NCBI GenBank assembly: GCA_029260965.1
Contig: JAJDCG010000001.1
Span: 184,012-248,011, forward strand
Source of the DNA: Candidatus Levyibacteriota bacterium
GTDB lineage: Bacteria > Patescibacteriota > Microgenomatia > Levybacterales > UBA12049
Length of the DNA stretch: 64,000 nt
Direction: 5' to 3'
Position 1 is the stretch's first letter; each line of letters starts with the position of its first letter. Shown one piece after another: positions 30,439 to 62,284 of this stretch. The position numbers were made by a program, and so were the translations under genes. The notes beneath the pieces were generated by a model. It was not told where the DNA came from. It did no database searches and saw nothing but the letters and a program-made list of their open reading frames with translations.

Positions 30439-30508
30439 TTCAAATTAGTTTTGTCAATAAAAAGAAGTTCTCTGGTCTCAGGGGACTTCTTTTGTGTATA
30501 ATAGTTCC

Positions 30509-31486: not shown

Positions 31487-31493
31487 TCTTATG

Positions 31494-32288
31494 CGACTTT
31501 TACGGATTTTTTTACTCCACTTTCAATATCTCCTATCACACCCGAGCAGATCATTTGTATTTATTTATACATACACTTTTTTATCACTTCTTTATCTGGC
31601 ATTTATAAGAGGAGTTTTTCTTCAAAATGGAGGAGATCTTGGAGGTTGGACATTGTCATCTGTTTCATCATATTATTTTTTGATTATAGTTGCACCAGCA
31701 CTTCTCATGACACATCCTGAGCACCCGGTTCTCAGGGATGATATTGAAAATGGTGAGTTATCGGGAAGACTTTTGAAACCTTTTTCTTATTATTGGCAAA
31801 GATTTTTTCATGAATTACCATATAGATTATTTCAGGGTCTCATTGCAACAATCATATTTATAGTACTTTCTGTTTTATTTAATAATTATATTGAATTTAG
31901 ATTATCCGTGTTACAAGTGATGCTAATTGTAATTATGCTACCACTTGCCTATATGCTAAGTTTTACTTTTAAAATGATACTTGCTATCACGGGACTTTGG
32001 ACAACAGACATAAGAGGAGCCCGTGAGCTAGTTGAGATATTAATCATTATCTTTGCAGGATTTATTGTGCCGGTTAACCTACTTCCTGGAATTCTTGAAA
32101 ATCTTGCCTACTTTTTACCATTTGCATATATGATTTATTTTCCTGTTGTTGCGGTCCAGGGACAATTATCTGTAAACGCTCTCATGTCTGTAATTAGTGT
32201 TCAGATTTTGTGGTTATCTATTTTGTATTTACTCTTTAGAAAAGTATGGAAAAAAGGATTGATGAGATTTACAGATCTTGGACACTAA
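31494..32288 (+). CDS. ABC-2-type permease paralogue 1 (6 TM)
   Basis: Polytopic membrane protein directly after the ATPase. Conserved C-terminal motif KVWKKGLMRFTDLGH. Start ambiguous (31458 or 31494). Confidence 0.75.
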   Translation, partial: RLLRIFLLHFQYLLSHPSRSFVFIYTYTFLSLLYLAFIRGVFLQNGGDLGGWTLSSVSSYYFLIIVAPALLMTHPEHPVLRDDIENGELSGRLLKPFSYYWQRFFHELPYRLFQGLIATIIFIVLSVLFNNYIEFRLSVLQVMLIVIMLPLAYMLSFTFKMILAITGLWTTDIRGARELVEILIIIFAGFIVPVNLLPGILENLAYFLPFAYMIYFPVVAVQGQLSVNALMSVISVQILWLSILYLLFRKVWKKGLMRFTDLGH

Positions 32289-33081
32289 TATGAAAAGATA
32301 CGTAAAAATTTATATTTTATTTATTAGGCTTAATTATCGTAGAGCATCTCTTCATATGGGAAATTTTATGACAGGACTTTTCGGAAACGTAGCTTGGGGA
32401 ATATTTTCGATTTTAGCAATTTATATTTTGAGTGCCAGGAGCACCTCAATTTTCGGATGGAGTAGAGAGGAGCTATTTGTCTTGGCAGGAACTTATAATA
32501 TATTGGTGGGGGGTTCTTTTAGGATGCTTTTTGCCCGGAATTTTGAAAATATGATAAATCTTATCAGGCTTGGAGGACTGGATGGAGTTCTGTTAAAACC
32601 TCTTAATTCGCAGTTTGGTGTTAGCACTGGACACTTGAGTATTTATTCTATGGCAAGAATTGTATTGTCTGTTATTTATGTATTTATAGTCATGAGCATA
32701 GCAGGAATTGAAATTGGAATAATAAATATTGTAAGTTTTTTAATTTTTGGATTTTTTGGTTTAATTGCACTTTATGCGTTTTGGTTTATTATTATGTCGT
32801 TTATTATCTGGTTTCCCGATTTATATAATATTGACGAAATACCATACTCAACGGATAACTTAGCAAGATATCCTCCGCAAATACTTTGGGCTATGAAGAT
32901 GTTTATTTTTCTATTCGCTTTTCCTGTATCACTTGTTGTTTCAACTCCAACAAAAGCGCTTATAGATAAGCTAACATTGTTTGATGCGGGCTTGTTGATT
33001 GCAGTTGCGCTAGGACTTCTTTTTGTATCAAGTAAATTCTGGAAATTTTCTCTAAGAAATTATACAAGCGCGAGCAGTTGA
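32278..33081 (+). CDS. ABC-2-type permease paralogue 2 (6 TM)
   Basis: Membrane protein. C-terminal motif KFWKFSLRNYTSASS, shared with paralogue 4. Confidence 0.75.
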   Translation: MDTNMKRYVKIYILFIRLNYRRASLHMGNFMTGLFGNVAWGIFSILAIYILSARSTSIFGWSREELFVLAGTYNILVGGSFRMLFARNFENMINLIRLGGLDGVLLKPLNSQFGVSTGHLSIYSMARIVLSVIYVFIVMSIAGIEIGIINIVSFLIFGFFGLIALYAFWFIIMSFIIWFPDLYNIDEIPYSTDNLARYPPQILWAMKMFIFLFAFPVSLVVSTPTKALIDKLTLFDAGLLIAVALGLLFVSSKFWKFSLRNYTSASS

Positions 33082-33884
33082 GAATTATGAATAAATATTT
33101 TTTGGTTGGGAAAAATTTGGTCAGTGAGATATTTACATATCGGCTTAATTTTGTCATGTGGAGGGTAAGAATGATACTTTCTCTTCTGACAATTTATTTT
33201 CTTTGGAGCGCACTCATTCCTGAAGGCAGAGAGCTTTTTGGCTATACGAATTCATCAATTTTAACATATATTATCTTGGTTCATCTAACTTACTCATTTG
33301 TTGTTGCTAGTAGGAGTTATGCAGTAGGAGAAGATATTATCCAGGGAAATTTATCTAATTTTTTACTTAAACCTTTCAATTATTTTACATATTTATTTTC
33401 AAAAGATGTTGGTGACAAATTTATGAATATAAGTCTAACAGTTATTGAACTTTCAATTCTTTTTGTTATCCTAAAACCTCCGATATTTATTCAAACAGAT
33501 TTATTATTGTTACTTTTAACAGCACTTAGCATTTTGAGCGGTATAGGAATAATGTTTTTTATCTATGTACTTTTAGGATCAATAGGGTTCTGGAGTCAAG
33601 AAGTCTGGGCTCCTAGGTTTATTTTTTTTACAATCATATTAAATTTTTTTACTGGTTTTCTTTTTCCATTAGATATCCTGCCAAAGCCTATTTTTGATTT
33701 TATTCAATTTCTTCCCTTTTCGTATCTTCTATATTTTCCAGTTAAAATTTATCTGGGGCAAATGGCAATAGATCAGATATTAATGGGAACTAGCATTTCC
33801 CTTTTTTGGGTTGTTGTGTTTCATTTGTTGCTAAAAAAAGTATGGACTAAAGGTCTTCAAATTTATGGGGCATACGGTAGATAG
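33078..33884 (+). CDS. ABC-2-type permease paralogue 3 (6 TM)
   Basis: Membrane protein. C-terminal motif KVWTKGLQIYGAYGR, resembling paralogue 1. Confidence 0.75.
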   Translation: MRIMNKYFLVGKNLVSEIFTYRLNFVMWRVRMILSLLTIYFLWSALIPEGRELFGYTNSSILTYIILVHLTYSFVVASRSYAVGEDIIQGNLSNFLLKPFNYFTYLFSKDVGDKFMNISLTVIELSILFVILKPPIFIQTDLLLLLLTALSILSGIGIMFFIYVLLGSIGFWSQEVWAPRFIFFTIILNFFTGFLFPLDILPKPIFDFIQFLPFSYLLYFPVKIYLGQMAIDQILMGTSISLFWVVVFHLLLKKVWTKGLQIYGAYGR

Positions 33885-33886
33885 TT

Positions 33887-34672
33887 ATGATTAATAAATA
33901 TTTTAAAGTGTGGTGGATTTTGACAACCAAAGCAGCGCAAATTGCACTTGAATCAAGATTTGGATCAACAATGTTCATACTGGGAAAAATTCTTAGGTTT
34001 GCTTTTCTCCTCATTTTTATTGTGATAGTTGCTACAGGAGCAGAGACTATAGCAGGATACGACACTTGGCAAGTAATACTTTTTTTTGCAACATTTAACT
34101 TGATTGATAGTGTACCTCAGTTTTTCTTTCGAGAGGTTTATAGATTTAGGCTATATGTAGTTTCAGGGGATTTTGATTATTTTCTGGTGAAACCCTTATC
34201 GCCACTTTTCAGATCACTTTTTGGCGGCGCTGACATACTTGATAGTTTTACAATAATAATTGCAGTAGTGCTATTGATAGTAGCAACTAGCAATATCAAT
34301 GGTGTGACAGTTGTTGGGATAAGTATTTATATAATACTTATTATAAACGCGTTTTTGATTACTACAGCGCTTCATATCTTTGTTTTGGCACTTGGGGTTA
34401 TCACAACAGAGATCGATAGCGCGCTTTGGATTTATAAGGATCTGACAGCGATGGGTAGATTTCCGATTGATATTTATAAAGAGCCCTTGAGAGGATTTAT
34501 AACTTTTGTGGTACCGATTGGGATTATGATCAGTTTTCCTCCAATGGCACTTTTGGGATTTTTGTCAGCTCAAATAATATTGTTTGCTATGGCAGTAGGA
34601 ATAAGCATTTTCCTTTTGAGTTTGAAGGTGTGGAAATTTGCGTTAAGAAAATATTCAAGCGCCAGTAGTTGA
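33887..34672 (+). CDS. ABC-2-type permease paralogue 4 (6 TM)
   Basis: Membrane protein. C-terminal motif KVWKFALRKYSSASS, resembling paralogue 2. Confidence 0.75.
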   Translation: MINKYFKVWWILTTKAAQIALESRFGSTMFILGKILRFAFLLIFIVIVATGAETIAGYDTWQVILFFATFNLIDSVPQFFFREVYRFRLYVVSGDFDYFLVKPLSPLFRSLFGGADILDSFTIIIAVVLLIVATSNINGVTVVGISIYIILIINAFLITTALHIFVLALGVITTEIDSALWIYKDLTAMGRFPIDIYKEPLRGFITFVVPIGIMISFPPMALLGFLSAQIILFAMAVGISIFLLSLKVWKFALRKYSSASS

Positions 34673-35083: not shown

Positions 35084-38011
35084 TTAAGAAACTGTATTGC
35101 AAAGCATTTTGTATTCGCAGTTTTTGCAGAATCTTCCACCATTACATTTAAATTCACTAATTTTTATCTCATCTACAAGTGACAATATCTTTTTTTTCGT
35201 TTCATTTAATTCTTCTGACGAACGGGTAGTGGATAGTTTTTGACCTGTCTCTAGATAATAAAGAGTGAGTTTTACGTCATCGGGATTTTTATGCAAAATA
35301 GGGTCGTTAATCTCTGTTGCAGCTAGTGCATAGAAAGAAAGCTGAAAATCGTTTTTAAGTTTTTTCTCATCTGGTATATTTGGTCCAGTTTTGTAATCAA
35401 TAATTTCAATTTTTTTGTCAGAGAGTTTGTCGATGCGATCAATTTTGCCTCCAATCTTAATTTCTTTATTAAGCCAAAAATTGAATGGTAATTCAATAGC
35501 TAGTGTGTCAGGATTGCTTTTTTTGTAGTCTGTGTAAAAATTATCAAGCATTTTTTGTGCTTGTTCAAATGTTTGTTTTTCGTGAATTTTACCCGTGTAT
35601 CCTTCTTTTATCCAATTCTTCTCCAAAAGATTTTTTATAACGGAAGTACTTATTTTTTCACCCTTCTTATCAAGCAGAACTAGATCACGAAGTGCGCTGT
35701 GGACACTAATTCCATAGCTGAGCGCTGCAATTGGCGGAGAAGGAAAATTAAGAATATATCTTAGTTTATAGTGAAGAGGACACATCTGAAAGGTATGAAG
35801 TTGAGAGTAGGATATATATGAAATTTGGTTCTTTGTTCCTTGATCTTTGTTTTGTGATTTGTTGGTGTCTATAATTTGGGATTGAGCGTTGGCAAGATCA
35901 AGTAATGTTAGCTGTTCCCCTATTGGTTGTTCGTCATGTTTATTGATAATATTTAGAATTTCTTCGCCAAGAGCTTCTACAACAAAGGGAGAAATTTTAC
36001 GTGGTCTTTTTGCTTCGCCGTAAAATTTGCTAGCTGTTAAAAAAAGTTTGTCTTTAGCACGGGTTGAAGCAACATAAAAAAGTCTTCGCTCCTCTTGTAT
36101 GTTTTCATCACCAGTGGGTAAGAGTTCTCGGATGAGATCCTCAGGCACGGGGATTGGCTCTCTTCTGTCGCGTCCTGGGAAACGTTGGGTTACGAGATTT
36201 ACCACAAAAACAACAGGAAACTCAAGACCTTTACTTGAATGAACTGTAAGTATATTAACTGCATTGTTTTGTGACCAATCAATGTCAGCAGCAAGCGGGC
36301 TTTCGCCAAGCTGCATTGAGAGATCTATCCAGTCAACTATTGCAAAAACTGATGCATCTTCTCTGTTTGTTGCGAAATTTTGGAGTTTTTCAAAAAATTT
36401 GGCAATGTTTTGTGCTTCCTTTTCTGTTCTTGGGGTTTTAGGATCCAGGTAGTGTCCCAAGAGTCCAGAATCATCGAAAAAGTAATAGAGTATTTGCCCT
36501 GCTGTTTCTAGAGGAACTTTTTCAAGATGACGCTTTATCATTTTTATTAATCGATTTATTTTTTCTTTACCTTCAGTTGTTAGATTGGAAGCATCAATAT
36601 TTTCCATAGCTTCAAAAAGTGACTGATTATTTTTTTTTGCATGATTCATGGTAGCTGCTACATCACGTGCAGCAATTCCGAAAATAGGAAGCGTCATGAC
36701 GCGGTAGAGTGATGACGTATCTTCAAAATTTGATAAAACATTTAGGTATGCAATAAGATCTTTTATTTCATTCTGCTGGAAAAGTCTTCCAGGACCGAGG
36801 AATTGATAAGGAATTTTTTTTCTTTCCATTGCTTTTTGAAAGGGTAGTGCATGATCATTAGCACGAACCAATATGGCGAAGTCATTATAGTTTAGTGCTG
36901 GTTTTTTTTTCTTTTCCTCTATTATTCTTAAGGCAACTTCCTCTGCTTCATCCTCAACCTTATTGGTATAAACTAGCTCTATTTCTTCACCTTTGGTTTC
37001 CCTCATTGAGGTTAGTTTCTTGTCTATTTTTTCTTTCACCTCAAGTCTATCTGGATTGTTGTTTTGAATTAATTGATATGCTCCGTCTAAAATTTTTTGT
37101 GTTGAGCGATAGTTTTTGGTAAGAGAGATTATTTTACTTTTGGGAAAGTGTTTTTTGAATTGAATCATATTTGAAATAGCAGCACCTCTCCATCTGTAAA
37201 TGCTTTGATCGTCATCGCCTACAACTGTTATATTTTTGTCCTGTCCTGCCAAAAGAATTGCCAATTCGTTTTGGGCGTAATTTGTGTCTTGGAATTCATC
37301 TACCAAAATATATTTGAACATTTTTTGATAATCCTTGAGTATATTTTCTCGAGTTCTAAAAAGCTTGAGGGTGTTACTTATGAGGTCAGAAAAGTCCATC
37401 ATTCCTGATTCTGCTTTTAGTTCTTCATATGTTTTATAGGCAGTTGCCAGTTCAAGTGTCTTTTTAATTTCATCTTTATTAATTTCAGGTGTTTGGGTTG
37501 AGTGGATGAGCTTTTTAGCGTAATTAAGATATTCTTGGGGAGTGATGTCATCATCTCGGAGGCGAGAGAAGTGGGTAATCATCGCACTTAAAAATTTCAT
37601 GGGATTTCCAAGAGGCCGAAAGTATGAAAGTTCAAACTTGAATAAGTTTTTTTTAAGAAAGAGTAATGTATCAGCCTCAGTCATGAGTGAAAATGAGGGA
37701 TTAAGTCCTATATGGATTGCTTCATGGCGAAGAACACGATCGCAAAATGCATGGAAGGTTTCAATCCACATTTGGGTATAGCCATAGGGAAGAGCAAGAT
37801 CGACTCGTTCCTCCATTTCGTTGGCTGCTTTTTCTGTGAAAGTAAGAGCCAGTATTTCAGATGGCAATATATCCTTTTTTTGAATCAGATATTTTATCCG
37901 TTCAGTCACAACGGTAGTTTTCCCGGTGCCAGCACCAGCTATGATTAAAAGTGGACCACTACCATGATTTACAGCCGAGAGCTGCTCGCTGTTCAGTCTT
38001 GTCTCACTCAT
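35084..38011 (-). CDS. UvrD/PcrA-family ATP-dependent DNA helicase fused to a C-terminal Cas4/AddB-type PD-(D/E)xK nuclease with 4-Cys (Fe-S) motif
   Basis: 975 aa. N-terminal AGAGTGKTT Walker A and UvrD motifs. C-terminal Cys ...C-x2-C-x5-C (CKNCEYKMLC) plus upstream QMCPLHY, and IDYKTG nuclease motif III. Confidence 0.85.
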   Translation of the reverse strand: MSETRLNSEQLSAVNHGSGPLLIIAGAGTGKTTVVTERIKYLIQKKDILPSEILALTFTEKAANEMEERVDLALPYGYTQMWIETFHAFCDRVLRHEAIHIGLNPSFSLMTEADTLLFLKKNLFKFELSYFRPLGNPMKFLSAMITHFSRLRDDDITPQEYLNYAKKLIHSTQTPEINKDEIKKTLELATAYKTYEELKAESGMMDFSDLISNTLKLFRTRENILKDYQKMFKYILVDEFQDTNYAQNELAILLAGQDKNITVVGDDDQSIYRWRGAAISNMIQFKKHFPKSKIISLTKNYRSTQKILDGAYQLIQNNNPDRLEVKEKIDKKLTSMRETKGEEIELVYTNKVEDEAEEVALRIIEEKKKKPALNYNDFAILVRANDHALPFQKAMERKKIPYQFLGPGRLFQQNEIKDLIAYLNVLSNFEDTSSLYRVMTLPIFGIAARDVAATMNHAKKNNQSLFEAMENIDASNLTTEGKEKINRLIKMIKRHLEKVPLETAGQILYYFFDDSGLLGHYLDPKTPRTEKEAQNIAKFFEKLQNFATNREDASVFAIVDWIDLSMQLGESPLAADIDWSQNNAVNILTVHSSKGLEFPVVFVVNLVTQRFPGRDRREPIPVPEDLIRELLPTGDENIQEERRLFYVASTRAKDKLFLTASKFYGEAKRPRKISPFVVEALGEEILNIINKHDEQPIGEQLTLLDLANAQSQIIDTNKSQNKDQGTKNQISYISYSQLHTFQMCPLHYKLRYILNFPSPPIAALSYGISVHSALRDLVLLDKKGEKISTSVIKNLLEKNWIKEGYTGKIHEKQTFEQAQKMLDNFYTDYKKSNPDTLAIELPFNFWLNKEIKIGGKIDRIDKLSDKKIEIIDYKTGPNIPDEKKLKNDFQLSFYALAATEINDPILHKNPDDVKLTLYYLETGQKLSTTRSSEELNETKKKILSLVDEIKISEFKCNGGRFCKNCEYKMLCNTVS

Positions 38012-38018
38012 TTAGTAG

Positions 38019-38480
38019 TCATTCTACCACAATGGTACCTAGGCGTTGTGGATTGAGATGATCGTGGTATCCATATGTTCCGGGTTGATCAATCACAACG
38101 CTTAATTCTTCACCATCTCCAAATCTTCCAAGGTTTAGAAGATCATTGTCGAGGTGGGTTGGATGATCGTCGGAATTGACAGTTGCAACATCACCGCTCT
38201 CGTTTAGCCATACGATTTTTGTACCTGCCTTAACTGTTAGGTTTGCTGGTTCAAAGCCCTCTTCGGTCAGAGTGACGGTTGTCTCTTCTTTTTCCATCAT
38301 GGCGTCATCTTCATGCTCTGTTACTTCATCGCTGTCTGATTTTTTTTCCATGGATTCTTCTGTATTTGTTCCACTATCTACGGGATTATTAGATTTTGAA
38401 GCATTCTGATTATTCACCAAAACAACACCAACAATTATTACTAAAACAACTACGAGTATTACTAGTATGTTTTTATTCAA
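38019..38480 (-). CDS. Membrane-anchored secreted protein with degenerate cupredoxin-like C-terminal domain
   Basis: N-terminal TM helix, acidic linker, then LTVKAGTKIVWLNES...YGYHDHLNPQ. This resembles the plastocyanin fold, but the Cys ligand position holds Tyr. Assignment tentative. Confidence 0.4.
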   Translation of the reverse strand: MNKNILVILVVVLVIIVGVVLVNNQNASKSNNPVDSGTNTEESMEKKSDSDEVTEHEDDAMMEKEETTVTLTEEGFEPANLTVKAGTKIVWLNESGDVATVNSDDHPTHLDNDLLNLGRFGDGEELSVVIDQPGTYGYHDHLNPQRLGTIVVE

Positions 38481-38572: not shown

Positions 38573-39259
38573 ATGAAAAGTAAAGCAAAAGAATTCGTAT
38601 TGACATTTACAAGAAAAGAAAAACTCGCTGACAATATCTATACTTTTTATTTCTTAAAAAATGAAGATTTTGATTTTTTGCCAGGTCAGTATGTACGTGT
38701 TACTTTACCTCATGAAGATTCGGACAATAGGGGCATGCATAGATATTTTACGATTTGTTCATCTCCCCTTGAAAAGTATTTAACAATCTCTACGAAGCTA
38801 GTTAAAAGTACATTCAAAAAGAAGATCTTTGCTCTTAGAAAAGGAGATGAAGTTACTTTTTTTGGGCCGATGGGAAATTTGGTTTTGGATGAGAGGGAAA
38901 GTGCCTCGCTGGTTTTCTTGGCAGGAGGTATGGGAATAACTCCTTTTAGGAGTATGGTAAAGTATGTCTCTGATAAAGATTTTAAAACTCAAATCACACT
39001 GATTGTGTCTCAAAAAGAAAACGCTAGAATTTTTCAGAAAGAGCTTGAGGAGACAGCTGCTAAGCATAAAAATATAAGAGTGTTTTTTACTGACAAAAAA
39101 ATAGATAAGAAATTGATAGCGCAAAATATTTCCAACTTAAACAATCAGAAATTTTTTGTGGTTGGCCCGCCAATGATGGTTGAGGATACAAAAAAAGTTT
39201 TGCAGGAAATGGGTGTATCAGGTGACAAAATCTTCTTTGAAGACTTCACGGGGTATTAG
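38573..39259 (+). CDS. Ferredoxin-NADP reductase-like FAD/NAD(P)-binding oxidoreductase
   Basis: 228 aa. R-x-Y-T/S FAD motif (RYFTICSSP) and GGMGITP NAD(P)-binding motif. Confidence 0.75.
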   Translation: MKSKAKEFVLTFTRKEKLADNIYTFYFLKNEDFDFLPGQYVRVTLPHEDSDNRGMHRYFTICSSPLEKYLTISTKLVKSTFKKKIFALRKGDEVTFFGPMGNLVLDERESASLVFLAGGMGITPFRSMVKYVSDKDFKTQITLIVSQKENARIFQKELEETAAKHKNIRVFFTDKKIDKKLIAQNISNLNNQKFFVVGPPMMVEDTKKVLQEMGVSGDKIFFEDFTGY

Positions 39260-46455: not shown

Positions 46456-46929
46456 ATGAGTCTTGATAATAAAAAAATGTATCTTACCCCAAAGGGGCTT
46501 GAGAATCTCAAAAAAGAGCATGAGGATCTAGTGAATAAAAGGAGGCCCGAGGTAATTGAACGGCTTTCAACTGCTCGTGAGATGGGAGATTTGTCAGAAA
46601 ACGCTGAGTATACCGCTGCGCGTGAGGAGCTATCATTCATAGATGGCAGGATTGAGGAGTTGGAGTCTTTTATTAAGCAGGCAGTGATCATAGACGAGGC
46701 AAATCACAAGACAAAATCAGTTGATTTGGGGTCTGAGGTAACAGTGAAGGTAAAAGGCAAAAAAGAAATATTTACACTAGTGGGTGAGTGGGAGGCAGAT
46801 CCGCAGGAGAAAAAAATATCCCATGAGTCACCACTTGGCAAGGCGCTTATTGGAAAAACTGTCGGTGATGACATAGAGGTAGAGGCACCTGCAGGGAAAA
46901 TGGTCTACACAATCGTCTCCATAGGTTAG
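46456..46929 (+). CDS. greA: Transcription elongation factor GreA
   Basis: 157 aa. N-terminal coiled coil with acidic tip (GDLSENAEY) and a C-terminal FKBP-like domain. Confidence 0.92.
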   Translation: MSLDNKKMYLTPKGLENLKKEHEDLVNKRRPEVIERLSTAREMGDLSENAEYTAAREELSFIDGRIEELESFIKQAVIIDEANHKTKSVDLGSEVTVKVKGKKEIFTLVGEWEADPQEKKISHESPLGKALIGKTVGDDIEVEAPAGKMVYTIVSIG

Positions 46930-47293
46930 TAGTTTGATTCGTTCTTCGTCTAAAATATAATATAAAAGAAAAGCAGAATTTGTAGATTAAGCTAGTCTAG
47001 GAGCATTTGACTGTGTTCTCCTTGGGGTAAAGTCTCTTCTTGGGGGTGGTCCTCCGTCAGTATCCATTCTTGCAATTTGAGCCTCGTCCGATAAAGGGTC
47101 ATAAGCGCCTCCGGAATTTCCGGTTGTACCTTCTTTATCTGCCCATTTACCAATAGTATCATCTGGAGCAAATCTAATAGAAGAAAATTCAGGACCATTT
47201 CTCATAGATTACGTGCAATATATATAATATTTGACAGTTTGTCAACAGGTATTTGCTCTCTGAGCCTATTTCACCTATAATTAAGTCCTATCT

Positions 47294-48478
47294 ATGGCCA
47301 GAAAGAAGCTTAGTGAGTATCGTGCAAAGATCCTGTTGTCAGAAGAGCTTGGAAAAGATTATGCAGGTATTTCATTTGATGCATCAAGAGATGATTTTAG
47401 CAAACTCAGAGAGTTGGATCAGTCAAAATCCTATGTAATCAAAATCGATGAAGGTATAAAAAAAAGGATGAAAAAAGGGTTGGTCGTTCTTAACAAAAGA
47501 CCAACAGATTTGAAAGAAGAGATAGGAAAGTTCTCCAAGTTGGGATATAAACATTTTATAATCGAACCATTTATTCAGCACGATTCTTCATCAGAGAAAT
47601 ACTTTTCCATTGAACGAGTGAGAGACGGATATCAAGTGCTTTATTCAGAAAGAGGAGGAATCGATATAGAGGAAAATCAGAGTGGGGTAAAAAAAGCATT
47701 AATTACGAGTGAAGAATCGTTTGAAGAAATTAATTCTGGTATCAAATTGCCAAGAGGGATATTGAGTAAAATTGTTCAAGCATTTGATAAGTATTATTTT
47801 TCTTTTTTGGAGATAAACCCTCTGGTTGTTGAGAATGGAAGTTTTCATTTTCTTGATATAGCATCAACTGTTGATAGCGCAGGGCAGTTTTTCGTTAAAA
47901 ACGCATGGGATGAGCGCAATCTTAGAACAGGAGAGATCAAAGCAAAAACTAATGAAGAAAAAAAGATTGCAGAGTTGTCTGCGAAATCTCAGGCATCATT
48001 TGCATTTGATTTTCTCAATCCTGACGGTTCGATTTTCGTACTCCTCTCAGGAGGCGGTGCTAGCGTAGTTCTTGCAGACGAGGTATACAACCTTGGCTTT
48101 GGACGCGACCTTGCTAACTATGGGGACTATAGTGGAAATCCCAATGCTGAGGAGACATATATTTATACCCGAAATATTCTTAGTCTTCTTCTCAAATCAA
48201 AGGCCAAGAAAAAAGTTTTTGTCATCGCTGGTGGAGTTGCCAATTTCACAGATATACGTATAACTTTCAAGGGAGTTATAAAAGCGCTATCTGAGTATGA
48301 AAAAGAATTAAAAAAACAAAATGTAAAAATATTTGTTCGTCGTGGAGGTCCGCATCAGGAGGAAGGAATAATAGATATGGAAAAGTTTCTTTTGAAAGCA
48401 GGTTTAGGCGGAGTTGTGTCTGGTCCAGAGATGAAATTGCCAGAGGTGGTGTCGGTTGCGATAAGTGCGTTAAAGTAA
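47294..48478 (+). CDS. aclB: ATP-citrate lyase small (beta) subunit, ATP-grasp/citrate-binding part
   Basis: 394 aa. Alignable along its full length to the N-terminal 420 aa of eukaryotic ACLY (FLEINPLVV, LNPDG..., GGGASVV..D, ANYGEYSG, GGxANFT..V..TFKG, VRRGGP). Confidence 0.85.
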   Translation: MARKKLSEYRAKILLSEELGKDYAGISFDASRDDFSKLRELDQSKSYVIKIDEGIKKRMKKGLVVLNKRPTDLKEEIGKFSKLGYKHFIIEPFIQHDSSSEKYFSIERVRDGYQVLYSERGGIDIEENQSGVKKALITSEESFEEINSGIKLPRGILSKIVQAFDKYYFSFLEINPLVVENGSFHFLDIASTVDSAGQFFVKNAWDERNLRTGEIKAKTNEEKKIAELSAKSQASFAFDFLNPDGSIFVLLSGGGASVVLADEVYNLGFGRDLANYGDYSGNPNAEETYIYTRNILSLLLKSKAKKKVFVIAGGVANFTDIRITFKGVIKALSEYEKELKKQNVKIFVRRGGPHQEEGIIDMEKFLLKAGLGGVVSGPEMKLPEVVSVAISALK

Positions 48479-48480
48479 AT

Positions 48481-50286
48481 ATGCTAGATATAGATTTTTT
48501 AAGAAAAAAAGATTTTAAGATAGTAACTGTTGGGAGTCATCCTGGCATCATCCAGTCAATCCTTGATTTTGATTATTTGGCTGGTAAAAAAGAACCAAGC
48601 CTGATTGGGATAATTGCAAACGGGAGAAAATTTGAGAGATATTTTTTTGGTAAAAAAGAAGTGCTTATTCCTGTTTTTGCAACAGTTAGTGATATCTCAG
48701 AACATCTAAAAAAGGAAATTTCGCTGTTCTTAAATTTTTCCTCAGGTCGACGTGTTTTTTCATCCACTATGGAGGTTTTGGAGACATTTCCAAATCTTTT
48801 GGGAGGATCAATATTTGCAGAAAATGTACCCGAGATTCATTCACTAAAAACCTGGGCAAAGATAAAAAACAAAGACATTTTCATAATTGGTCCTGCAAGT
48901 GTGGGATTGATCATACCAGGGTTTCTCAAGATGGGTGCAGCAGGAGGAGTTAATTATAGGCAGCTTATTAACGCGAAGCTTTTGGATCAGGGCTCGGTTG
49001 CGGTATTATCTGGATCAGGAGGGATGACAAATGAAATCATAAATACGGTGACAGGATTTGGTGGTAGAGTATCGTTTGCGCTTTCTTTTGGGGGTGAAAG
49101 ATTTCCTATTCTTTCACCAGAAAATGCTTTTTTGGCAGCTGAGCGTGATCCTGCAACAAAAATTGTTGTGTATTTTGGTGAATTGGGGGGTACCGACGAG
49201 TATGATCTAAGTGAGCTTCTGAAGTCAAAAAAAGTCAGTAAAAAGGTTGTTTGTTATATCGCAGGGTCTGTTGCTGAGATGTTTGATGCTCCACCCCAAT
49301 TTGGTCATGCTAAAGCACTAGCAGAAAGTCAGGAGGAAACAGCTCGGGGAAAAAGAGAAATTCTTAAAAAGGCAGGGGCAAAAGTTGCCCAAACTTATCA
49401 GGAGTTTCTGGATTATATAAAGGATGAGACAGAGGTTTATGACACGCCTAAAAAAGAGTATAATACTCATATGGTTGAGCTGAATGATAGAAAAAAAGCA
49501 CTCGTGACAAGTGGCATCTCAGGTGATAAAAACGGTAATCCACAGCTTTTGGGAGAGGATCTTTTGGAATTTGCGAGCAAAAATTCATTTGCTAGTATTG
49601 CTTCTTCTCTTTTTCTCGGAAAAAAAATAAAATCCAAAGAACTCGAGGAATTTGTTGACTTTGTTTTAAGACTTTTGGTAGATCATGGACCATATGTTTC
49701 AGGTGCTGTTAATACTATTGTCACAGCACGTGCAGGGCGAGATCTTGTCTCATCTCTAGCAGCTGGTCTTCTGACAATAGGACCGAGATTTGGCGGAGCA
49801 ATAAATGAGGCAGCTGGTAACTGGTTGTTGGGTGTTAAAAGTGGGAAAAGTGTCGTGGATTTTGTTGAAGGGTTTGCTAGTAGAAAAGTCTATATTTCAG
49901 GAATCGGTCATAAAAAGTATAGGTCTGATTTTCCTGATCCTAGAGTCGCTGAGCTTTTGAAATTCGCGGACAAACTTTCAGAAAAAAGATTTACAAAATT
50001 TGCACTCGATGTGGAGAAGACAACAACTGCCAAAAAAGGAAACCTCATTCTCAATGTAGATGGTGCGATCGCTGCGGTGATGCTTGATATATTGTCTGAT
50101 AAAGAGAAAATGTCTGATGAGGAGCTGCAAAAACTTGCAGATATAGAGTTTTTTAATTCAATTTTTGTTCTTTCTCGCTCGGTTGGATTTATCTCACACT
50201 TTTTGGATCAAAAAAGGCTTGATGAGGGAATCTTCAGGCTCCCCGAGGATATGGTTCTTGAGACCGATGTGCTCAGGAAGAAATAG
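48481..50286 (+). CDS. aclA: ATP-citrate lyase large (alpha) subunit: CoA-binding/phosphohistidine domain plus citrate-synthase-like domain
   Basis: 601 aa. LDFDY, IIGPA.VG, QFGHA (phospho-His motif). C-terminal HGPYVSGAVNTIVTARAGRDLVSSLAAGLLTIGPRFGGA ... LILNVDGAIA ... FISHFLDQKRL match the ACLY CS-like domain to its end. Confidence 0.85.
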   Translation: MLDIDFLRKKDFKIVTVGSHPGIIQSILDFDYLAGKKEPSLIGIIANGRKFERYFFGKKEVLIPVFATVSDISEHLKKEISLFLNFSSGRRVFSSTMEVLETFPNLLGGSIFAENVPEIHSLKTWAKIKNKDIFIIGPASVGLIIPGFLKMGAAGGVNYRQLINAKLLDQGSVAVLSGSGGMTNEIINTVTGFGGRVSFALSFGGERFPILSPENAFLAAERDPATKIVVYFGELGGTDEYDLSELLKSKKVSKKVVCYIAGSVAEMFDAPPQFGHAKALAESQEETARGKREILKKAGAKVAQTYQEFLDYIKDETEVYDTPKKEYNTHMVELNDRKKALVTSGISGDKNGNPQLLGEDLLEFASKNSFASIASSLFLGKKIKSKELEEFVDFVLRLLVDHGPYVSGAVNTIVTARAGRDLVSSLAAGLLTIGPRFGGAINEAAGNWLLGVKSGKSVVDFVEGFASRKVYISGIGHKKYRSDFPDPRVAELLKFADKLSEKRFTKFALDVEKTTTAKKGNLILNVDGAIAAVMLDILSDKEKMSDEELQKLADIEFFNSIFVLSRSVGFISHFLDQKRLDEGIFRLPEDMVLETDVLRKK

Positions 50287-50298
50287 AGCTTCAATGTC

Positions 50299-51261
50299 AT
50301 GATTATTCACGAAAATTTTCCAATTTCAGATATTACATGGTATGAGATTGGTGGTAAAGCGCGTTATTTGATTGTTTGTAAGAGTAAGACTGACATTCTA
50401 GAAGCATTCGACTTTGTTAAAGAAAAGAAGGCAAAGAAATTTTTTGTCTTTGGCATGGGAACGAATCTCATTTTTACAGATGGGTATTTTGATGGGGTAG
50501 TAATTAAGCTAGATTCTTCAGACCAGAATGACATCAGTATAGAAAACGAAGAGGTTGAGGTTTTTGCAGGAGTTGAGTTTGATGATTTGATTCAGTTTTC
50601 ATTCAGTCATAATTTAACAGGGCTTGAATGGGGAGGAGGACTTCCAGGAACTGTTGGTGGGGCAGTCAGGGGAAATGCAGGTGCGTATGGTGGCGAGGTA
50701 AAGGATAATTTGGAGTCAATCCAAGCACTAGACATCACAGCAAAGATTCCGGAGTTGAGAACTCTAACAAATAAGGATCTTGATTTTTCCTATAGAAATA
50801 GTTTTATCAAACAAAATAGAAATCTGATTGTGATTTCCGCGAAATTTCGTTTGAAAAAAGTTGATAACACTGATCTGGATGAATCAAGACAAACATATGA
50901 AAAAAATATCCAGACACGAAAAGAAAAACATCCCCTGGAGTATCCCAATACAGGATCAGTTTTTATAAATCCTAGAACACAAGAAGAGATAGGGAGGATA
51001 ATGTCAGTTTATCCAGACTTGCGAGAAAGCGTAGAAAATAGATGGTATGGAAAAGTGGCAGTTGCATCATTAATCGATAGATGGGGTCTAAAAGGTCTTC
51101 GTATTGGGAATGCTCAGATTTCTAAAAAGCATGCTTTATTTATAGTCAATTTAGGCGGAGCTAGGGCTGCAGATGTGCTTGAGATTATAGATACAGTTAA
51201 GAAAAAGTTTTTTGCGACATTTGGATTTGAGCTCAAGACTGAGGTTGAGATAGTAATTTAG
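50299..51261 (+). CDS. murB: UDP-N-acetylenolpyruvoylglucosamine reductase MurB
   Basis: 320 aa. FAD-binding N-domain (GGKARYLI, FVFGMGTNL) and GLEWGGGLPGTVGGAV motif. Confidence 0.9.
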   Translation: MIIHENFPISDITWYEIGGKARYLIVCKSKTDILEAFDFVKEKKAKKFFVFGMGTNLIFTDGYFDGVVIKLDSSDQNDISIENEEVEVFAGVEFDDLIQFSFSHNLTGLEWGGGLPGTVGGAVRGNAGAYGGEVKDNLESIQALDITAKIPELRTLTNKDLDFSYRNSFIKQNRNLIVISAKFRLKKVDNTDLDESRQTYEKNIQTRKEKHPLEYPNTGSVFINPRTQEEIGRIMSVYPDLRESVENRWYGKVAVASLIDRWGLKGLRIGNAQISKKHALFIVNLGGARAADVLEIIDTVKKKFFATFGFELKTEVEIVI

Positions 51262-51346: not shown

Positions 51347-51417
51347 CCTCTCTCTGAGAGGGTAGCTTTGTTGGTGATTTTCAAGAAATGCTACCCCTCA
51401 CTAAAGAGGGGTTTTTT
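51347..51417 (+). promoter_or_regulatory. Leader with mutually exclusive hairpins (terminator cccctc-actaaa-gagggg-TTTTTT at 51394-51417 plus upstream antiterminator-like pairing)
   Basis: Segments read directly: A cctctctc, B gagagggtagc, C gctacccctc, D gagggg+T6. A pairs with B, B with C, and C with D. It lies 35 nt upstream of the 51456 gene and the lysK fusion. Confidence 0.45.
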
Positions 51418-51860: not shown

Positions 51861-54107
51861 ATGCATATGTTCTGGGCTGATGAATTATTGGGAAACAGAA
51901 AAGGTGATGAGTGGGTTAATGATGCATGGACACCATCGGGCATTGTGCATATGGGAGGCCTAAAAGGCCCTATGATCCATGATGTTTTGAGTCGCATCTT
52001 AAAGGATAAAAAAGTTAAGACAAAATATACATTTGGATTTGATGATATGGATCCAATTGACGGATTGCCTCAAGATCTTCATGAGTCGCATGAGAAATAC
52101 ATGGGAATGCCAATTTATATTGCTCCTGGACCAGATGGGAAGGGAACATTTGGGGAGTATTACAGCAACAAAATGAGCCATCTTTTCAAATTGCTAGGAA
52201 TTGAAGCAGAGATATATTTGGCTCATGAATACTACAAAAAGGGAATCTATAACGATGCGATTAAATTGGTATTAGATAATTCAGGAAAAGTTAGGAAAGT
52301 TTATGAAGAGATGTATAAAAAATCCATAAGTAATGATTGGTATCCTTTTCAGATAATTTGTCCGGAGTGTGGTAAGTTGGGAACGACAAAAGTAGTCGGA
52401 TGGGATGGTAAGGAGGTTGAATTTGTCTGCTCAGAGGATCTTGTCAAATGGGCACATGGTTGCGGAGCAGAGGGTAGAATTTCACCATTTAATGGTAATG
52501 GAAAAATTCCATTCAAGGTCGAGTGGGCTGCAAAGTGGTGGGTGTTTGGAGTGACGATTGAAGGTGCTGGAAAAGATCATGCTTCCGCAGGAGGCACTTA
52601 TGATGTAGCAAGAAAAATTGTCAAAGACGTTTTTGGTAAGGATCCACCCCTAAAGCTTCCTTATGAGTTTTTTTTATCACATGGGAGAAAAATGTCATCG
52701 TCAAAAGGACTAGGCCTTACAGGAGAAGAGCTTTTGGAAGTTTTGCCGGCTGAGTTGGTAAGATTTTTGATGATAAAGAATCATCCAAACAGAGCAGTTG
52801 AATTTGAACCAAAAGGAACGGATATAATTCCTAAATTGTATGATGATTATCAAAAAGCAGCGGATGCATATTTTGAAAAAACAGATGAGGATCTTGCTCG
52901 TATTTTTGAACTTTCACAAATAGGTGAGGTTAAAAAACCGCCGAGCGTTCGGTTTTCGGCTCTGGCTCAATGGGTGCAGATGCCCAATATGAGTGGTGCG
53001 ATAAAAAAAGAAAATGCAGAAGAATGGGCAAAGTATGCAAGAGTTTGGATTGAGAAATTTGCGCCCGAGTCAGAAAAGTTTGTTGTCTCGGAAAGTCTTC
53101 CCGAATTAGCAAAAGAGCTAACTGAACAGCAAAAAAATTTATTGAAAAAAATAGCAGAAGAGCTTGACAAAGACTGGGATGCAGAAGAGTTCCAGACAAA
53201 AATTTATGATTTAGGAAAAGAACTTAGCCTAAAAGGTAAAGAGACTTTTTCGGCAATTTATTTGTCATTAATAGGCAAAGATCACGGACCAAAGGCAGCA
53301 TGGCTCATCCTCTCTCTTGATAAAGATTTTGTGAAAAAAAGATTTAATGAAACAGCGGTGAAGGTTGAAAAGTTAAACATTAAAGATGAAGAAAATACTA
53401 ATATTGAATTTTTAAAAAAGCCTGAAATTTTTTCTATAGATTTAGGATTGTTTGAAAAGCATCCATCAATTTCTGTCGGAGTAGCTCTCATAAAAGGTGT
53501 TAGAATTGAAAAAACAAATCCGGATCTCGAGAAGGAGAAAAGCCAGTTCTTAAATTCTCTGACTGGATTGACTACCCAAGAGTTGGGACAGTATCCAGAA
53601 ATTGTTAGTTATCGTAATCTTTATAAAGAAATGGGGGTTGACTGGCACTCCAGGCGTCCAAGTCCTGAAGCGCTTCTACGTCGGGTAGCTTTGAACAAAG
53701 GCTTATACACTATAAATACAGCAGTCGATGCCTATAATCTGGTAGTTATGAAGCATAGAGTTTCAATTGGTGCCTTTGATCTGGACAAGCTAGAATTTCC
53801 GACAGTGCTGAGATTTGCAGGGGAGGGTGAGGAGATACATCTTCTTGGAGATAAAGAGCCTACCGCATACAAAGAAGGAGAAATAGCTTATTTTGATCAA
53901 AATGGTGGATTTAATATGGACTTTAATTATCGTGATGCCAAAAGAACCGCAGTTACAGAATCTACGAAGAATCTTTATATAAATGTTGATGGAGCTTATG
54001 ACATTTCTCCTAAAAAAGTTGAAGAAGTTCTAAGAGATGCAATTGAGATAATTATAAAATACTGCGGTGGAGAATTAGAAGTATTTGGACTTGAAAAAAT
54101 ACATTAG
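51861..54107 (+). CDS. lysK: Class I lysyl-tRNA synthetase fused to a C-terminal B3/4-like (COG3382-type) domain
   Basis: The N-terminal ~520 aa match archaeal-type LysRS-I (FWADELLG, TPSGIVHMGG [HIGH-like], CPECG zinc motif, EGAGKDH, KMSSSKG [KMSKS]). The C-terminal ~220 aa (PSPEALLRRVALNKGLYTINTAVDAYN...) resemble the PheT B3/4 domain family. Confidence 0.85.
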   Translation: MHMFWADELLGNRKGDEWVNDAWTPSGIVHMGGLKGPMIHDVLSRILKDKKVKTKYTFGFDDMDPIDGLPQDLHESHEKYMGMPIYIAPGPDGKGTFGEYYSNKMSHLFKLLGIEAEIYLAHEYYKKGIYNDAIKLVLDNSGKVRKVYEEMYKKSISNDWYPFQIICPECGKLGTTKVVGWDGKEVEFVCSEDLVKWAHGCGAEGRISPFNGNGKIPFKVEWAAKWWVFGVTIEGAGKDHASAGGTYDVARKIVKDVFGKDPPLKLPYEFFLSHGRKMSSSKGLGLTGEELLEVLPAELVRFLMIKNHPNRAVEFEPKGTDIIPKLYDDYQKAADAYFEKTDEDLARIFELSQIGEVKKPPSVRFSALAQWVQMPNMSGAIKKENAEEWAKYARVWIEKFAPESEKFVVSESLPELAKELTEQQKNLLKKIAEELDKDWDAEEFQTKIYDLGKELSLKGKETFSAIYLSLIGKDHGPKAAWLILSLDKDFVKKRFNETAVKVEKLNIKDEENTNIEFLKKPEIFSIDLGLFEKHPSISVGVALIKGVRIEKTNPDLEKEKSQFLNSLTGLTTQELGQYPEIVSYRNLYKEMGVDWHSRRPSPEALLRRVALNKGLYTINTAVDAYNLVVMKHRVSIGAFDLDKLEFPTVLRFAGEGEEIHLLGDKEPTAYKEGEIAYFDQNGGFNMDFNYRDAKRTAVTESTKNLYINVDGAYDISPKKVEEVLRDAIEIIIKYCGGELEVFGLEKIH

Positions 54108-60790: not shown

Positions 60791-62284
60791 CTAAACTTTT
60801 TCTGTCACCTTATATTCAAGTCTCTTATTAAACATGAGTTGAGTGTGGGATATAAGAGCCGGGAGTGCTGAGAGGAAAAAACCCACAAGAGGCATGAGTA
60901 GGAATTCAAATGGAAAAAGAATTTTACGACTGAGACTCAGGTTTTGATTTGCAGGTCTAATTTTGTACTCTAGATACATCATGCCAAGCAGCGCTAGTGT
61001 ACAGAAGCTGAGGATAAATCCCGCCAATTGCGGTAGTTGAAAGCCTAGTGATGTTCTGGAGAAAACTGGATTTAAAAATGCCATTATATTGGCAGCAACG
61101 GTTATGATAAACCAATTGGTCGGCCAGAGAATGTGATCGAGAAATACATTGAATGTGAGAACAGTCTTTTTATAAAAAGGAACTCCGGGTACTGTAAACC
61201 ACCATTTTATAAATAATGGGTTGTCTGATACGCCCCATGACCAACGTCTTTCCTGGGAGTATTTATTTTTAAGACTTTTCATATATGTTGTCGAGTGGGC
61301 AGCATCCATGGATGTTCTCAGGAAGATCGGATCGACCGTAACGCGACCTTTGGTTTTGAAGAATGCTTTGAAGAAGATTCGATAATCCTCTGGTATAACA
61401 TCCACATCCCAGTACCCTATCTTTTTCAAAAGCTTAAATGACAGTGAGTAGGTGGCATGAGTGGTGAGTCTGTCTTTTTGAATAAGCAGAGCTGTTCTCC
61501 AGAGACTGCCAAAGAATGAAATTATGCGGATAGGGGATGGTACTTTCCATATATTGTTGTAGTAAACAACAGCAGATTGCCAGAATCTATAGTGTCTTTC
61601 TGGACTTTTAAGAAATGCATGACTCAAAAAGGCAAAGTGTTCTTTGTGAAATATTGAGTCAGCATCAACTGATGAAACAGTTGCGTAGTCAAGATCAAGT
61701 TTCCCATCAACAAAAAGTTTTTTGTAAGCAACTCGTCCAGCGTATGCTTCATTTGAGGATTTACCTTTTACTTCACCTTCTACGTCAGGATGAAAGGTCA
61801 CGAAAAGACTTCCAAATTTTCCTTTAAATCTTTTTAAGAGAATTTCTGCTCTTTCTTTTGCTTCATGCTCCCGTTCTTCCATTGCGAGGATGATGTGAAT
61901 ATATTTCTTGGGAAGCGATTGTCTCGTTAAGGCTTCAAGGGTGGTACCAACCTTTGCAGCGCTTTCACCAAAATTTGGAATTACAAGTACATGATGGACT
62001 TTGTCAAAGTCTTTGAGTTTTTTTGCTTTAATATACCAGTTTTTTTCCTCTGCTGCCTTTACCTTTTTTGCGGCCAGAGATGTTAAGATTATTAGAGATA
62101 TAGATTTATATAGCCAGTACATATCGAAAAAAAGTATGAAGTAGGCAGTGGCTGTCGGGAGAAATAGAGACCCCCAAATTGGAGACAATACAATTGTCCA
62201 TACGAGCATTCCTGGTAGAAGTTCAAGAGTTCTTCTGGTTTTTATAGGGTAGCGTGTAAAGATTTTTTCAAAAAAGCTAGTCAT
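60791..62284 (-). CDS. Membrane-embedded family-2 glycosyltransferase (processive, cellulose/chitin-synthase-like)
   Basis: 497 aa. VLVIPNFGE, DAD (VDADSIF), and QERRWSWG (the Q-x2-RW motif). Flanking TM helices. Confidence 0.8.
   Translation of the reverse strand: MTSFFEKIFTRYPIKTRRTLELLPGMLVWTIVLSPIWGSLFLPTATAYFILFFDMYWLYKSISLIILTSLAAKKVKAAEEKNWYIKAKKLKDFDKVHHVLVIPNFGESAAKVGTTLEALTRQSLPKKYIHIILAMEEREHEAKERAEILLKRFKGKFGSLFVTFHPDVEGEVKGKSSNEAYAGRVAYKKLFVDGKLDLDYATVSSVDADSIFHKEHFAFLSHAFLKSPERHYRFWQSAVVYYNNIWKVPSPIRIISFFGSLWRTALLIQKDRLTTHATYSLSFKLLKKIGYWDVDVIPEDYRIFFKAFFKTKGRVTVDPIFLRTSMDAAHSTTYMKSLKNKYSQERRWSWGVSDNPLFIKWWFTVPGVPFYKKTVLTFNVFLDHILWPTNWFIITVAANIMAFLNPVFSRTSLGFQLPQLAGFILSFCTLALLGMMYLEYKIRPANQNLSLSRKILFPFEFLLMPLVGFFLSALPALISHTQLMFNKRLEYKVTEKV

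Follow-up and report, generated by a model that had tools for sequence, protein, structure and literature searches.

A predicted two-subunit ATP-citrate lyase in a Levybacteria-type genome and its relatives across the Candidate Phyla Radiation

Two adjacent genes in a 64-kb stretch of contig JAJDCG010000001.1 (Candidatus Levyibacteriota bacterium, positions 184,012 to 248,011; hereafter, the window) encode what sequence comparison confirms as a full-length, heteromeric ATP-citrate lyase (ACL, EC 2.3.3.8) of the type known from eukaryotes and Methanosaeta. The pair belongs to an old, monophyletic clade of ACLs that is specific to the Candidate Phyla Radiation (CPR, Patescibacteria). On balance we favor a functional enzyme, native to this genome, that cleaves scavenged citrate to provide acetyl-CoA in an organism without a tricarboxylic acid (TCA) cycle, rather than one that serves the reductive TCA (rTCA) cycle. 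Both genes are intact, lie on the same strand 2 nt apart, and occupy exactly the interval (47294-50286) that an initial annotation of the DNA had assigned to two open reading frames (ORFs). The genes and their two signature loops are as follows.

47294-48478, plus strand: aclB, 394 aa, ACL beta subunit with ATP-grasp and citrate-binding domains.
48481-50286, plus strand: aclA, 601 aa, ACL alpha subunit, a CoA-ligase/phospho-His domain fused to a citrate-synthase-homology (CSH; citryl-CoA lyase) domain.
48239-48250, plus strand: ANFT citrate-binding loop of AclB, residues 316-319, equivalent to human 345-348.
49297-49317, plus strand: phospho-His loop QFGHAKA of AclA, with the H276 codon at 49306-49308 and the K278 codon at 49312-49314.

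All Pfam domains found in the two proteins exceed their gathering thresholds. AclB matches PF24948 (ATP-citrate synthase ATP-grasp; 115 bits, cutoff 83, residues 3-205) and PF16114 (ACL citrate-binding; 185 bits, cutoff 27, E 1.4e-54, residues 218-391), while AclA matches PF00549 (Ligase_CoA) and PF00285 (citrate synthase C-terminal; E 3.4e-20, residues 369-586). When PDB is searched, residues 12-591 of AclA align to residues 497-1090 of human ACLY (E 1e-104, 354 bits), closely followed by Methanosaeta concilii ACLY-B (E 3e-103, 350 bits). Chlorobium AclA is a weaker match (E 6e-63, 217 bits), and citryl-CoA lyase (CCL), citryl-CoA synthetase (CCS) and succinyl-CoA synthetase (SCS) reach just 58-75 bits. 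The ranking for AclB runs parallel: 216-220 bits for human ACLY (residues 44-390 against 52-419, E 7e-64), 212 for Methanosaeta and 126 for Chlorobium. Matches to CCS, CCL and SCS, at E 1e-14 to 1e-20, are far below those to ACL. No ACL-specific model of NCBIfam/TIGRFAM matched, the only hits being to SCS, CCL and citrate synthase (CS) models, all far under their cutoffs, so the identification rests on Pfam and PDB. Taken together, the Pfam domains, the PDB ranking and the sub-cutoff scores of the SCS, CCL and CS models identify a eukaryote/Methanosaeta-like ACL, neither SCS nor CCS/CCL. SCS was rejected on the scores of its NCBIfam models (52-112 bits against cutoffs of 336-375) and on the presence of the additional citrate-binding and CS-like domains. 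A CCS/CCL system was rejected as well, since the lyase is here fused to the alpha subunit and CCS/CCL structures match at E 1e-14 to 1e-18, compared with 1e-64 to 1e-104 for ACL.

Residue roles were taken from Wei et al. 2023 (PMC10115795) and mapped through alignments to human ACLY. Residues E114, H276, H402, H477, D527 and R566 of AclA correspond to human E599, H760, H900, H975, D1026 and R1065. AclB has the equivalents of human K58, K64, R66, N203 and D216 at the nucleotide site and of G309, N346, F347, T348 and R379 at the citrate site. AclA and AclB of the window keep the 17 functional positions, 16 of which are also kept in 51-54 of the 52-54 CPR sequences scored, with H276 and E114 invariant among these homologues. 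At the position of human R976, AclA has Lys. This was considered as a possible defect and rejected, Lys being the majority residue in CPR (37 Lys to 17 Arg, n=54) and common in fused, eukaryote-type enzymes (7/18 sequences). The initial annotation had described a two-subunit ACL with a QFGHA phospho-His motif and a complete CS-like domain, and each element of that description is borne out: Pfam ACL domains lie above cutoff, alignments to PDB structures are full-length, ACL structures score highest instead of SCS or CCS proteins that lack the CS-like domain, the QFGHA motif (AclA residues 273-277, nt 49297-49311) keeps its catalytic His (H276, human H760), and the His and Asp residues of the CS domain (H402, H477, D527) are conserved. 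By homology to human ACLY, MgATP bound in the ATP-grasp domain of AclB would phosphorylate H276, carried on a mobile loop of AclA, and the phosphoryl group would then move to citrate held at the ANFT/R350 site of AclB. Attack by CoA would give citryl-CoA, to be split into acetyl-CoA and oxaloacetate with the aid of E114 and the CSH module (H402, H477, D527, R566).

The closest ACL homologues share 60-69% identity with the window proteins, make up more than 120 clusters (90% identity) and include proteins labelled Candidatus Levybacteria. An exhaustive HMMER search of 1.84 billion representatives gave no more than 144 clusters at 50% identity (E <= 1e-30), and the clade of the window forms one of them. 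When one genome per GTDB species was scanned, 594 ACL-encoding stretches were obtained; among the best 80, which were examined, 54 are Patescibacteria-type contigs, at 44-66% identity. Their labels are Levybacteria, Saccharibacteria/Saccharimonadales, Magasanikbacteria, Kaiserbacteria and Paceibacterota, along with several obviously mislabelled metagenome-assembled genomes (MAGs). Outside CPR there is a sharp drop, with Micrarchaeota, Thermoplasmatota, Methanotrichaceae, Aquificota, Desulfobacterota and other groups at no more than 39% identity. In neighbor-joining (NJ) trees the CPR sequences are monophyletic, with bootstrap support of 100/100 for AclA (117 sequences, 587 columns) and 92/100 for AclB (89 sequences, 383 columns), and the window ACL nests among Levybacteria-like sequences. 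These are distance trees whose deeper nodes, including the sister group of the CPR clade and the placement of the eukaryotic fused enzymes, have bootstrap values below 55, and their deep topology should not be over-read. ACL identity also holds when the proteins are placed in phylogeny against the Chlorobium, eukaryotic and CCS/CCL types. The trees and the species scan indicate that ACL is a clade-wide trait of many Patescibacteria and no oddity of one genome. An ACL in a streamlined, CPR-like genome, as first described, therefore stands, while the peculiarity this implied does not, since about 55 species-level Patescibacteria genomes carry the enzyme.

Two side observations concern the same sequences. 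Several contigs have labels that conflict with their content: 'uncultured Gammaproteobacteria' for L003, L007-L010, L012, L014, L016-L018 and L054, 'Dormiibacterota' for L039, 'Gemmatimonadetes' for L050 and 'Pseudomonadales' for L046. Their ACLs fall in the CPR clade and most share synteny with Levybacteria or Saccharimonadales, L039 having five neighbor clusters in common with the Saccharimonadales loci L024 and L027. These contigs are probably mislabelled or mis-binned. In addition, fused ACL-like proteins of about 990-1080 aa (P0151-P0165, P0178, P0181, P0188 and P0201) form groups apart from the animal-type ACLY (P0136, P0142) and interleaved with two-subunit forms in the NJ trees, which may reflect several independent fusion events.

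The clade carries its own signature. The phospho-His loop reads GHAKA in 57/59 clade members; ACLs outside the clade, two-subunit and fused, nearest outgroups included, have GHAGA in 55/58 cases and Lys in 0/58. Spacing from this motif to downstream residues is unchanged, so the difference is a true Gly-to-Lys substitution two residues after the phospho-His (K278 in the window). In AclA just one further column is as strictly diagnostic as this one. AclB has two such columns, Ser252 immediately N-terminal to the GGGAS loop and Val315 just ahead of the ANFT citrate loop. CPR AclB is also shorter, at about 391 aa compared with about 426 elsewhere, having lost some 30-35 residues through loop deletions. 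In human ACLY the loop bearing His760 moves back and forth between the pockets for ATP and citrate (PMC11365397), which implies that K278 rides on a mobile catalytic element. Our literature search found nothing on human G762 or on the Gly of GHAGA.

For the gene neighborhoods, ORFs were called and clustered at 81 loci (55 CPR, 26 non-CPR) and recurrent neighbors were annotated. The adjacency of aclB and aclA holds at nearly all 81. By tblastn, aconitase occurs within 10 kb at 0/55 CPR and 13/26 non-CPR loci (p 3e-8), and isocitrate dehydrogenase (IDH) at 0/55 and 11/26. Small GNAT acetyltransferases of three unrelated families accompany acl at 18 CPR loci, on either side and on either strand, and in several different subclades of the ACL tree. 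MurB is found at 10 CPR loci, all Levybacteria-like, where it lies no more than three genes downstream of aclA; GlmS is found at seven, in Saccharimonadia. A Tdh-like/Kbl-like pair, assigned at family level only and below the equivalog cutoffs, is present at three. Two loci, L002 (6979-8733) and L004 (7072-8811), have a full-length acetate-CoA ligase (NF003313, 812 bits, cutoff 729) immediately upstream of aclB. An unbiased Pfam census set the closest ORF of 100 aa or more on either side of acl (n=105 in all) against 150 ORFs lying 6-7 genes away. GNAT is the top family of the nearest flanking ORFs (15/105) and MurB the second (7/105); 6-7 genes away, GNAT is outside the 25 most frequent families, hence at most 2/150, giving Fisher p-values (9e-7 to 5e-5) that overstate independence, the loci being phylogenetically related. 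The theme shared by the neighbors of CPR acl is the production and consumption of acetyl-CoA, especially in N-acetylation and in the making of amino-sugar and peptidoglycan precursors. That the GNATs beside acl and GlmS are GNA1-like glucosamine-6-phosphate N-acetyltransferases was considered and found unsupported, as their matches are generic GNAT ones that stay below cutoffs, and GNA1 is missing from the PDB matches. As a separate observation, L002 and L004 are close relatives of the window, in which the spot of the acetate-CoA ligase holds only a 72-aa ORF on the minus strand; the ligase may have been lost recently in the window's lineage.

Because the neighbors are linked to acetyl-CoA, and because the TCA cycle is reported missing from Microgenomates (PMC6064768) and from CPR at large (PMC8407418), the supply of acetyl-CoA from imported citrate is the best-supported model. 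Citrate from a host or from the environment would be cleaved to give acetyl-CoA for N-acetylation (by the GNATs and for amino-sugar and peptidoglycan precursors), with oxaloacetate as co-product. The initial annotation had put forward acetyl-CoA or oxaloacetate from scavenged citrate as a possible use. The idea fits the neighborhood and has already been published for another CPR bacterium (PMC6851277); for this genome it is still a matter of inference. Several points weigh against the model. No citrate transporter or oxaloacetate-consuming enzyme is encoded in the window, and 22/55 CPR loci have no acetyl-CoA-linked neighbor within 10 kb. Family and PDB searches assign no substrate to the GNATs, and the murB link could be a single arrangement inherited within Levybacteria. 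The ACL reaction is reversible, citryl-CoA being formed from the products (PMC10115795), and a Lys next to the phospho-His could alter kinetics or direction. A bolder version holds that Levybacteria and Saccharimonadia have as a core module one ancient CPR-specific ACL (GHAKA, shortened AclB), which draws acetyl-CoA from host citrate and is kept beside GNAT and amino-sugar/peptidoglycan genes; this version is tentative and, in our judgment, rather doubtful.

The same cleavage could be retained for its other product. Acetyl-CoA and oxaloacetate arise in equal amounts, and in a cell without a TCA cycle or anaplerotic carboxylase the oxaloacetate might be what matters, as a C4 skeleton for aspartate and asparagine, as a source of phosphoenolpyruvate (PEP) via PEP carboxykinase, or for redox balance through malate and pyruvate. 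According to PMC6064768, related Microgenomates can make neither acetyl-CoA nor oxaloacetate, and the model for Gracilibacterium uses both products (PMC6851277). However, no gene for handling oxaloacetate or aspartate recurs beside CPR acl, where the recurrent neighbors use or make acetyl-CoA, and we regard a role centered on oxaloacetate as unlikely. Malate dehydrogenase, malic enzyme, PFOR, Pta/Ack and GlmU were not found in the window.

The enzyme might instead work in the opposite direction, acting as a citrate synthase that yields ATP (acetyl-CoA + oxaloacetate + ADP + Pi giving citrate + CoA + ATP) and keeps the thioester energy by substrate-level phosphorylation. An ATP-yielding ACL of this kind was reportedly described in Desulfobacter postgatei by Moller et al. 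in 1987. The chemistry is reversible (PMC10115795), the neighboring Acs and Tdh-like/Kbl-like genes make acetyl-CoA, and the Lys that marks the clade, next to the phospho-His, might change where the phosphoryl-transfer steps come to equilibrium. Against this, no aconitase or IDH lies near any of the 55 CPR loci to use the citrate, and the reaction needs a source of oxaloacetate, none being known in CPR that lack the TCA cycle. The GNAT, GlmS and MurB neighbors are, moreover, consumers of acetyl-CoA. Operation in the direction of citrate synthesis is thus quite unlikely.

A third alternative is that the chemistry of the GHAKA clade has changed, toward a different acid substrate, CCS activity only or a regulatory role. 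It would account for a Lys at an otherwise near-invariant Gly (57/59 clade members, 0/58 others), for an AclB shorter by about 35 residues, and for the diagnostic Ser ahead of the GGGAS loop. Yet 51-54 of 52-54 CPR sequences keep the citrate-binding and CSH-domain residues, and each subunit has only two diagnostic columns, which makes altered chemistry improbable next to ordinary citrate cleavage.

That ACL serves as the citrate-cleaving step of the rTCA cycle, in CO2 fixation, would be the textbook expectation, as ACL is a standard marker of that cycle and acl is linked to aconitase and IDH in non-CPR relatives. The absence of both enzymes within 10 kb of all 55 CPR loci, the reported lack of a TCA cycle in CPR and Microgenomates (PMC8407418, PMC6064768) and the streamlined look of the genome argue strongly in the other direction. 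Aconitase, IDH, 2-oxoglutarate:ferredoxin oxidoreductase, fumarate reductase and other TCA genes are all missing from the 64-kb window, whose annotation agrees with the first impression that no other TCA gene was in view. We consider autotrophy by this route highly improbable, and citrate cleavage for acetyl-CoA remains the favored role.

The host is supported as a Levybacteria-type CPR bacterium. In the window, L18, S5, L15 and SecY follow one another directly, S5 and L15 being 22 nt apart, and L30 is therefore absent from that junction. Brown et al. in 2015 are said to have described L30 as a marker for CPR. Because L30 is missing, and because the nearest ACLs and the synteny of the flanks are those of Levybacteria/Patescibacteria MAGs, the genome is of CPR type, in agreement with the initial annotation, which had cited the lack of L30. 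The window also encodes EF-Tu, RecA, RNase Y, TsaD, a class-I lysyl-tRNA synthetase (LysRS) and cell-envelope glycosyltransferases, and no central-metabolism genes besides acl. The acl region is compositionally ordinary, with a tetranucleotide correlation of r = 0.943 (rank 29/62 windows), a codon-usage correlation of r = 0.90 (0.83 for reference genes), a GC content of 0.384 compared with 0.375, and a GC content at third codon positions (GC3) of 0.30-0.31, typical of the window. The chimerism that such a comparison might have exposed is not seen. An independent Logan assembly of SRR15505512 reproduces, on an 18.7-kb contig, the order solute-binding protein (SBP), unknown gene, greA, small ORF, aclB, aclA, murB, unknown gene, lysS. 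The upstream SBP, unknown gene and GreA and the downstream LysRS and glycan genes are common to other Levybacteria-like loci. Given typical composition, codon usage and GC3, agreement between assemblies and conserved flanks, the acl genes are native to the host genome, with chimerism and recent transfer effectively excluded. That the segment is a misassembly or a contaminating piece of a non-CPR contig, a suspicion fed by implausible labels such as 'uncultured Gammaproteobacteria' on several database relatives and otherwise merely a prior one, is barely credible in the face of this evidence and of an ACL clade that is itself CPR-specific.

The signals and genes around the pair are listed here.

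46456-46929, upstream of aclB: greA, by Pfam.
46987-47205, minus strand: 72-aa ORF between greA and aclB, without Pfam match.
47199-47228, plus strand: promoter-like site TTCTCA-18-TATAAT in the 88-nt gap 5' of aclB, a consensus match only and weak evidence.
47231-47245, upstream region of aclB: perfect inverted repeat TTGACAgttTGTCAA, read directly from the sequence.
50299-51261, plus strand: murB (UDP-N-acetylenolpyruvoylglucosamine reductase), Pfam MurB_C and FAD_binding_4.
51393-51412, plus strand: terminator-like hairpin with T-run, the first such plus-strand site past aclB-aclA-murB, a consensus match only.

The promoter-like hexamers ahead of aclB, the 12 nt that separate the end of aclA from the start of murB, and the position of the first terminator-like hairpin past murB suggest that the three genes probably form a single transcript, with murB co-transcribed. 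The initial annotation had placed an aclB-aclA operon between greA and murB; both flanking genes are verified by Pfam and the pair itself holds, while the signal scan and synteny make aclB-aclA-murB the more likely unit. As for function, the inverted repeat TTGACAgttTGTCAA is a candidate operator or divergent promoter. Its right arm coincides with the -35-like hexamer of a promoter-like site on the minus strand (47245-47217), which faces the 72-aa ORF at 46987-47205. Rfam and tRNA scans returned nothing relevant at the acl locus.

Other features of the window deserve mention. The class-I LysRS (51861-54107, plus strand, 748 aa, PF01921) carries a C-terminal B3/B4 domain (PF03483), whose usual home is the beta subunit of phenylalanyl-tRNA synthetase, and its gene cluster (c23) recurs downstream of acl at five Levybacteria-like loci. 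A cupredoxin-like copper protein (38019-38480, minus strand) adjoins an FAD/NAD(P)-binding oxidoreductase (38573-39259, plus strand), a pairing unexpected in a presumed fermentative CPR genome. An ABC ATPase followed by four tandem paralogous permease genes of the ABC-2 family (PF06182) occupies 30494-34672 on the plus strand, and at 35084-38011 on the minus strand a 975-aa protein, similar to AddA/AddB, joins a UvrD/Rep helicase to a C-terminal PD-(D/E)XK (Cas4-like) nuclease. Three long ORFs have no significant Pfam domain: 415-2658 (minus, 747 aa), 21439-23505 (plus, 688 aa) and 60791-62284 (minus, 497 aa).

The basic picture of ACL is unchanged by these results. It was already known that ACL exists as a family, that it can serve purposes other than autotrophy and that some CPR bacteria have it; this is an enzyme of ordinary mechanism whose presence in the host group is under-appreciated. 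What is of value is how broad the clade is, that a diagnostic motif marks it, that it is uncoupled from TCA genes, and that autotrophy calls based on AclB need caution. AclB serves widely as a marker for rTCA autotrophy when metagenomes are surveyed (for example, in the marker set of bioRxiv 10.1101/2020.08.06.239558). A large clade of heterotrophic CPR ACLs would yield false calls, for which the GHAKA motif is a simple filter. The favored role offers a concrete, testable route by which organisms with very little central metabolism could take in carbon and acetyl groups, and it predicts that citrate is a host-derived nutrient. Should the core-module version be true, bacteria would have an equivalent of the eukaryotic axis from ACLY to acetyltransferases, citrate would be a key currency of episymbiosis, and 'rTCA carbon fixation' calls based on AclB would be systematically inflated wherever CPR are abundant. 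In the Gly-to-Lys change on the swinging phospho-His loop, a family of drug-target enzymes has a naturally occurring variant that could inform mechanism.

Published accounts of CPR ACL are few. A 2025 survey reports aclAB as enriched in Saccharimonadia (PMC12577380), and a 2022 preprint has CPR sequences among misannotated citrate-cleaving enzymes. We found no literature on Levybacteria ACL, on a CPR-specific ACL clade, on the GHAKA motif or on a GNAT/MurB/GlmS linkage, and the papers we found on the rTCA cycle and ACL phylogeny do not mention CPR. The nearest precedent is the two-subunit ACL in a closed genome of Gracilibacteria (BD1-5), for which Sieber et al. 2019 (mBio, PMC6851277) proposed a citrate-scavenging role. 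That enzyme, like the present one, has two subunits and a CPR host without a TCA cycle. It is described, however, as having GHAGA and archaeal affinity (lateral transfer) and, judged from this description, it probably lies outside the GHAKA clade. The same paper calls ACL 'rarely detected in CPR', in contrast to the roughly 55 species-level genomes with the GHAKA clade.

Among characterized systems, the best matches are human ACLY and the ACLY-A/B of Methanosaeta (Methanothrix) concilii (PDB 6hxh, 6poe, 6hxi), which agree with the window ACL in domain order and in their catalytic, ATP-binding, citrate-binding and CSH residues. The role of eukaryotic ACLY is likewise to provide acetyl-CoA for acetylation and biosynthesis, not for CO2 fixation. 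Nevertheless, the window ACL is only 37-39% identical to these enzymes, its AclB is about 30-35 residues shorter, GHAKA replaces GHAGA, and Lys is commoner in CPR at the R976 position. Being two polypeptides, it also lacks the linker with regulatory phosphosites of the fused human protein. AclBA of Chlorobium limicola (PDB 6hxj) is likewise heteromeric with similar domains, but is much more distant (217 and 126 bits) and functions in the autotrophic rTCA cycle. Non-CPR prokaryotic acl loci are tied to aconitase and IDH, whereas CPR loci never are (0/55). The CCS and CCL of Hydrogenobacter (PDB 6hxq, 6hxp) are homologous modules that carry out the same pair of half-reactions, with the lyase separate there and fused to the alpha subunit here. 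SucCD has the ATP-grasp, CoA-ligase and phospho-His core in common with the window ACL, but not the citrate-binding and CSH domains.

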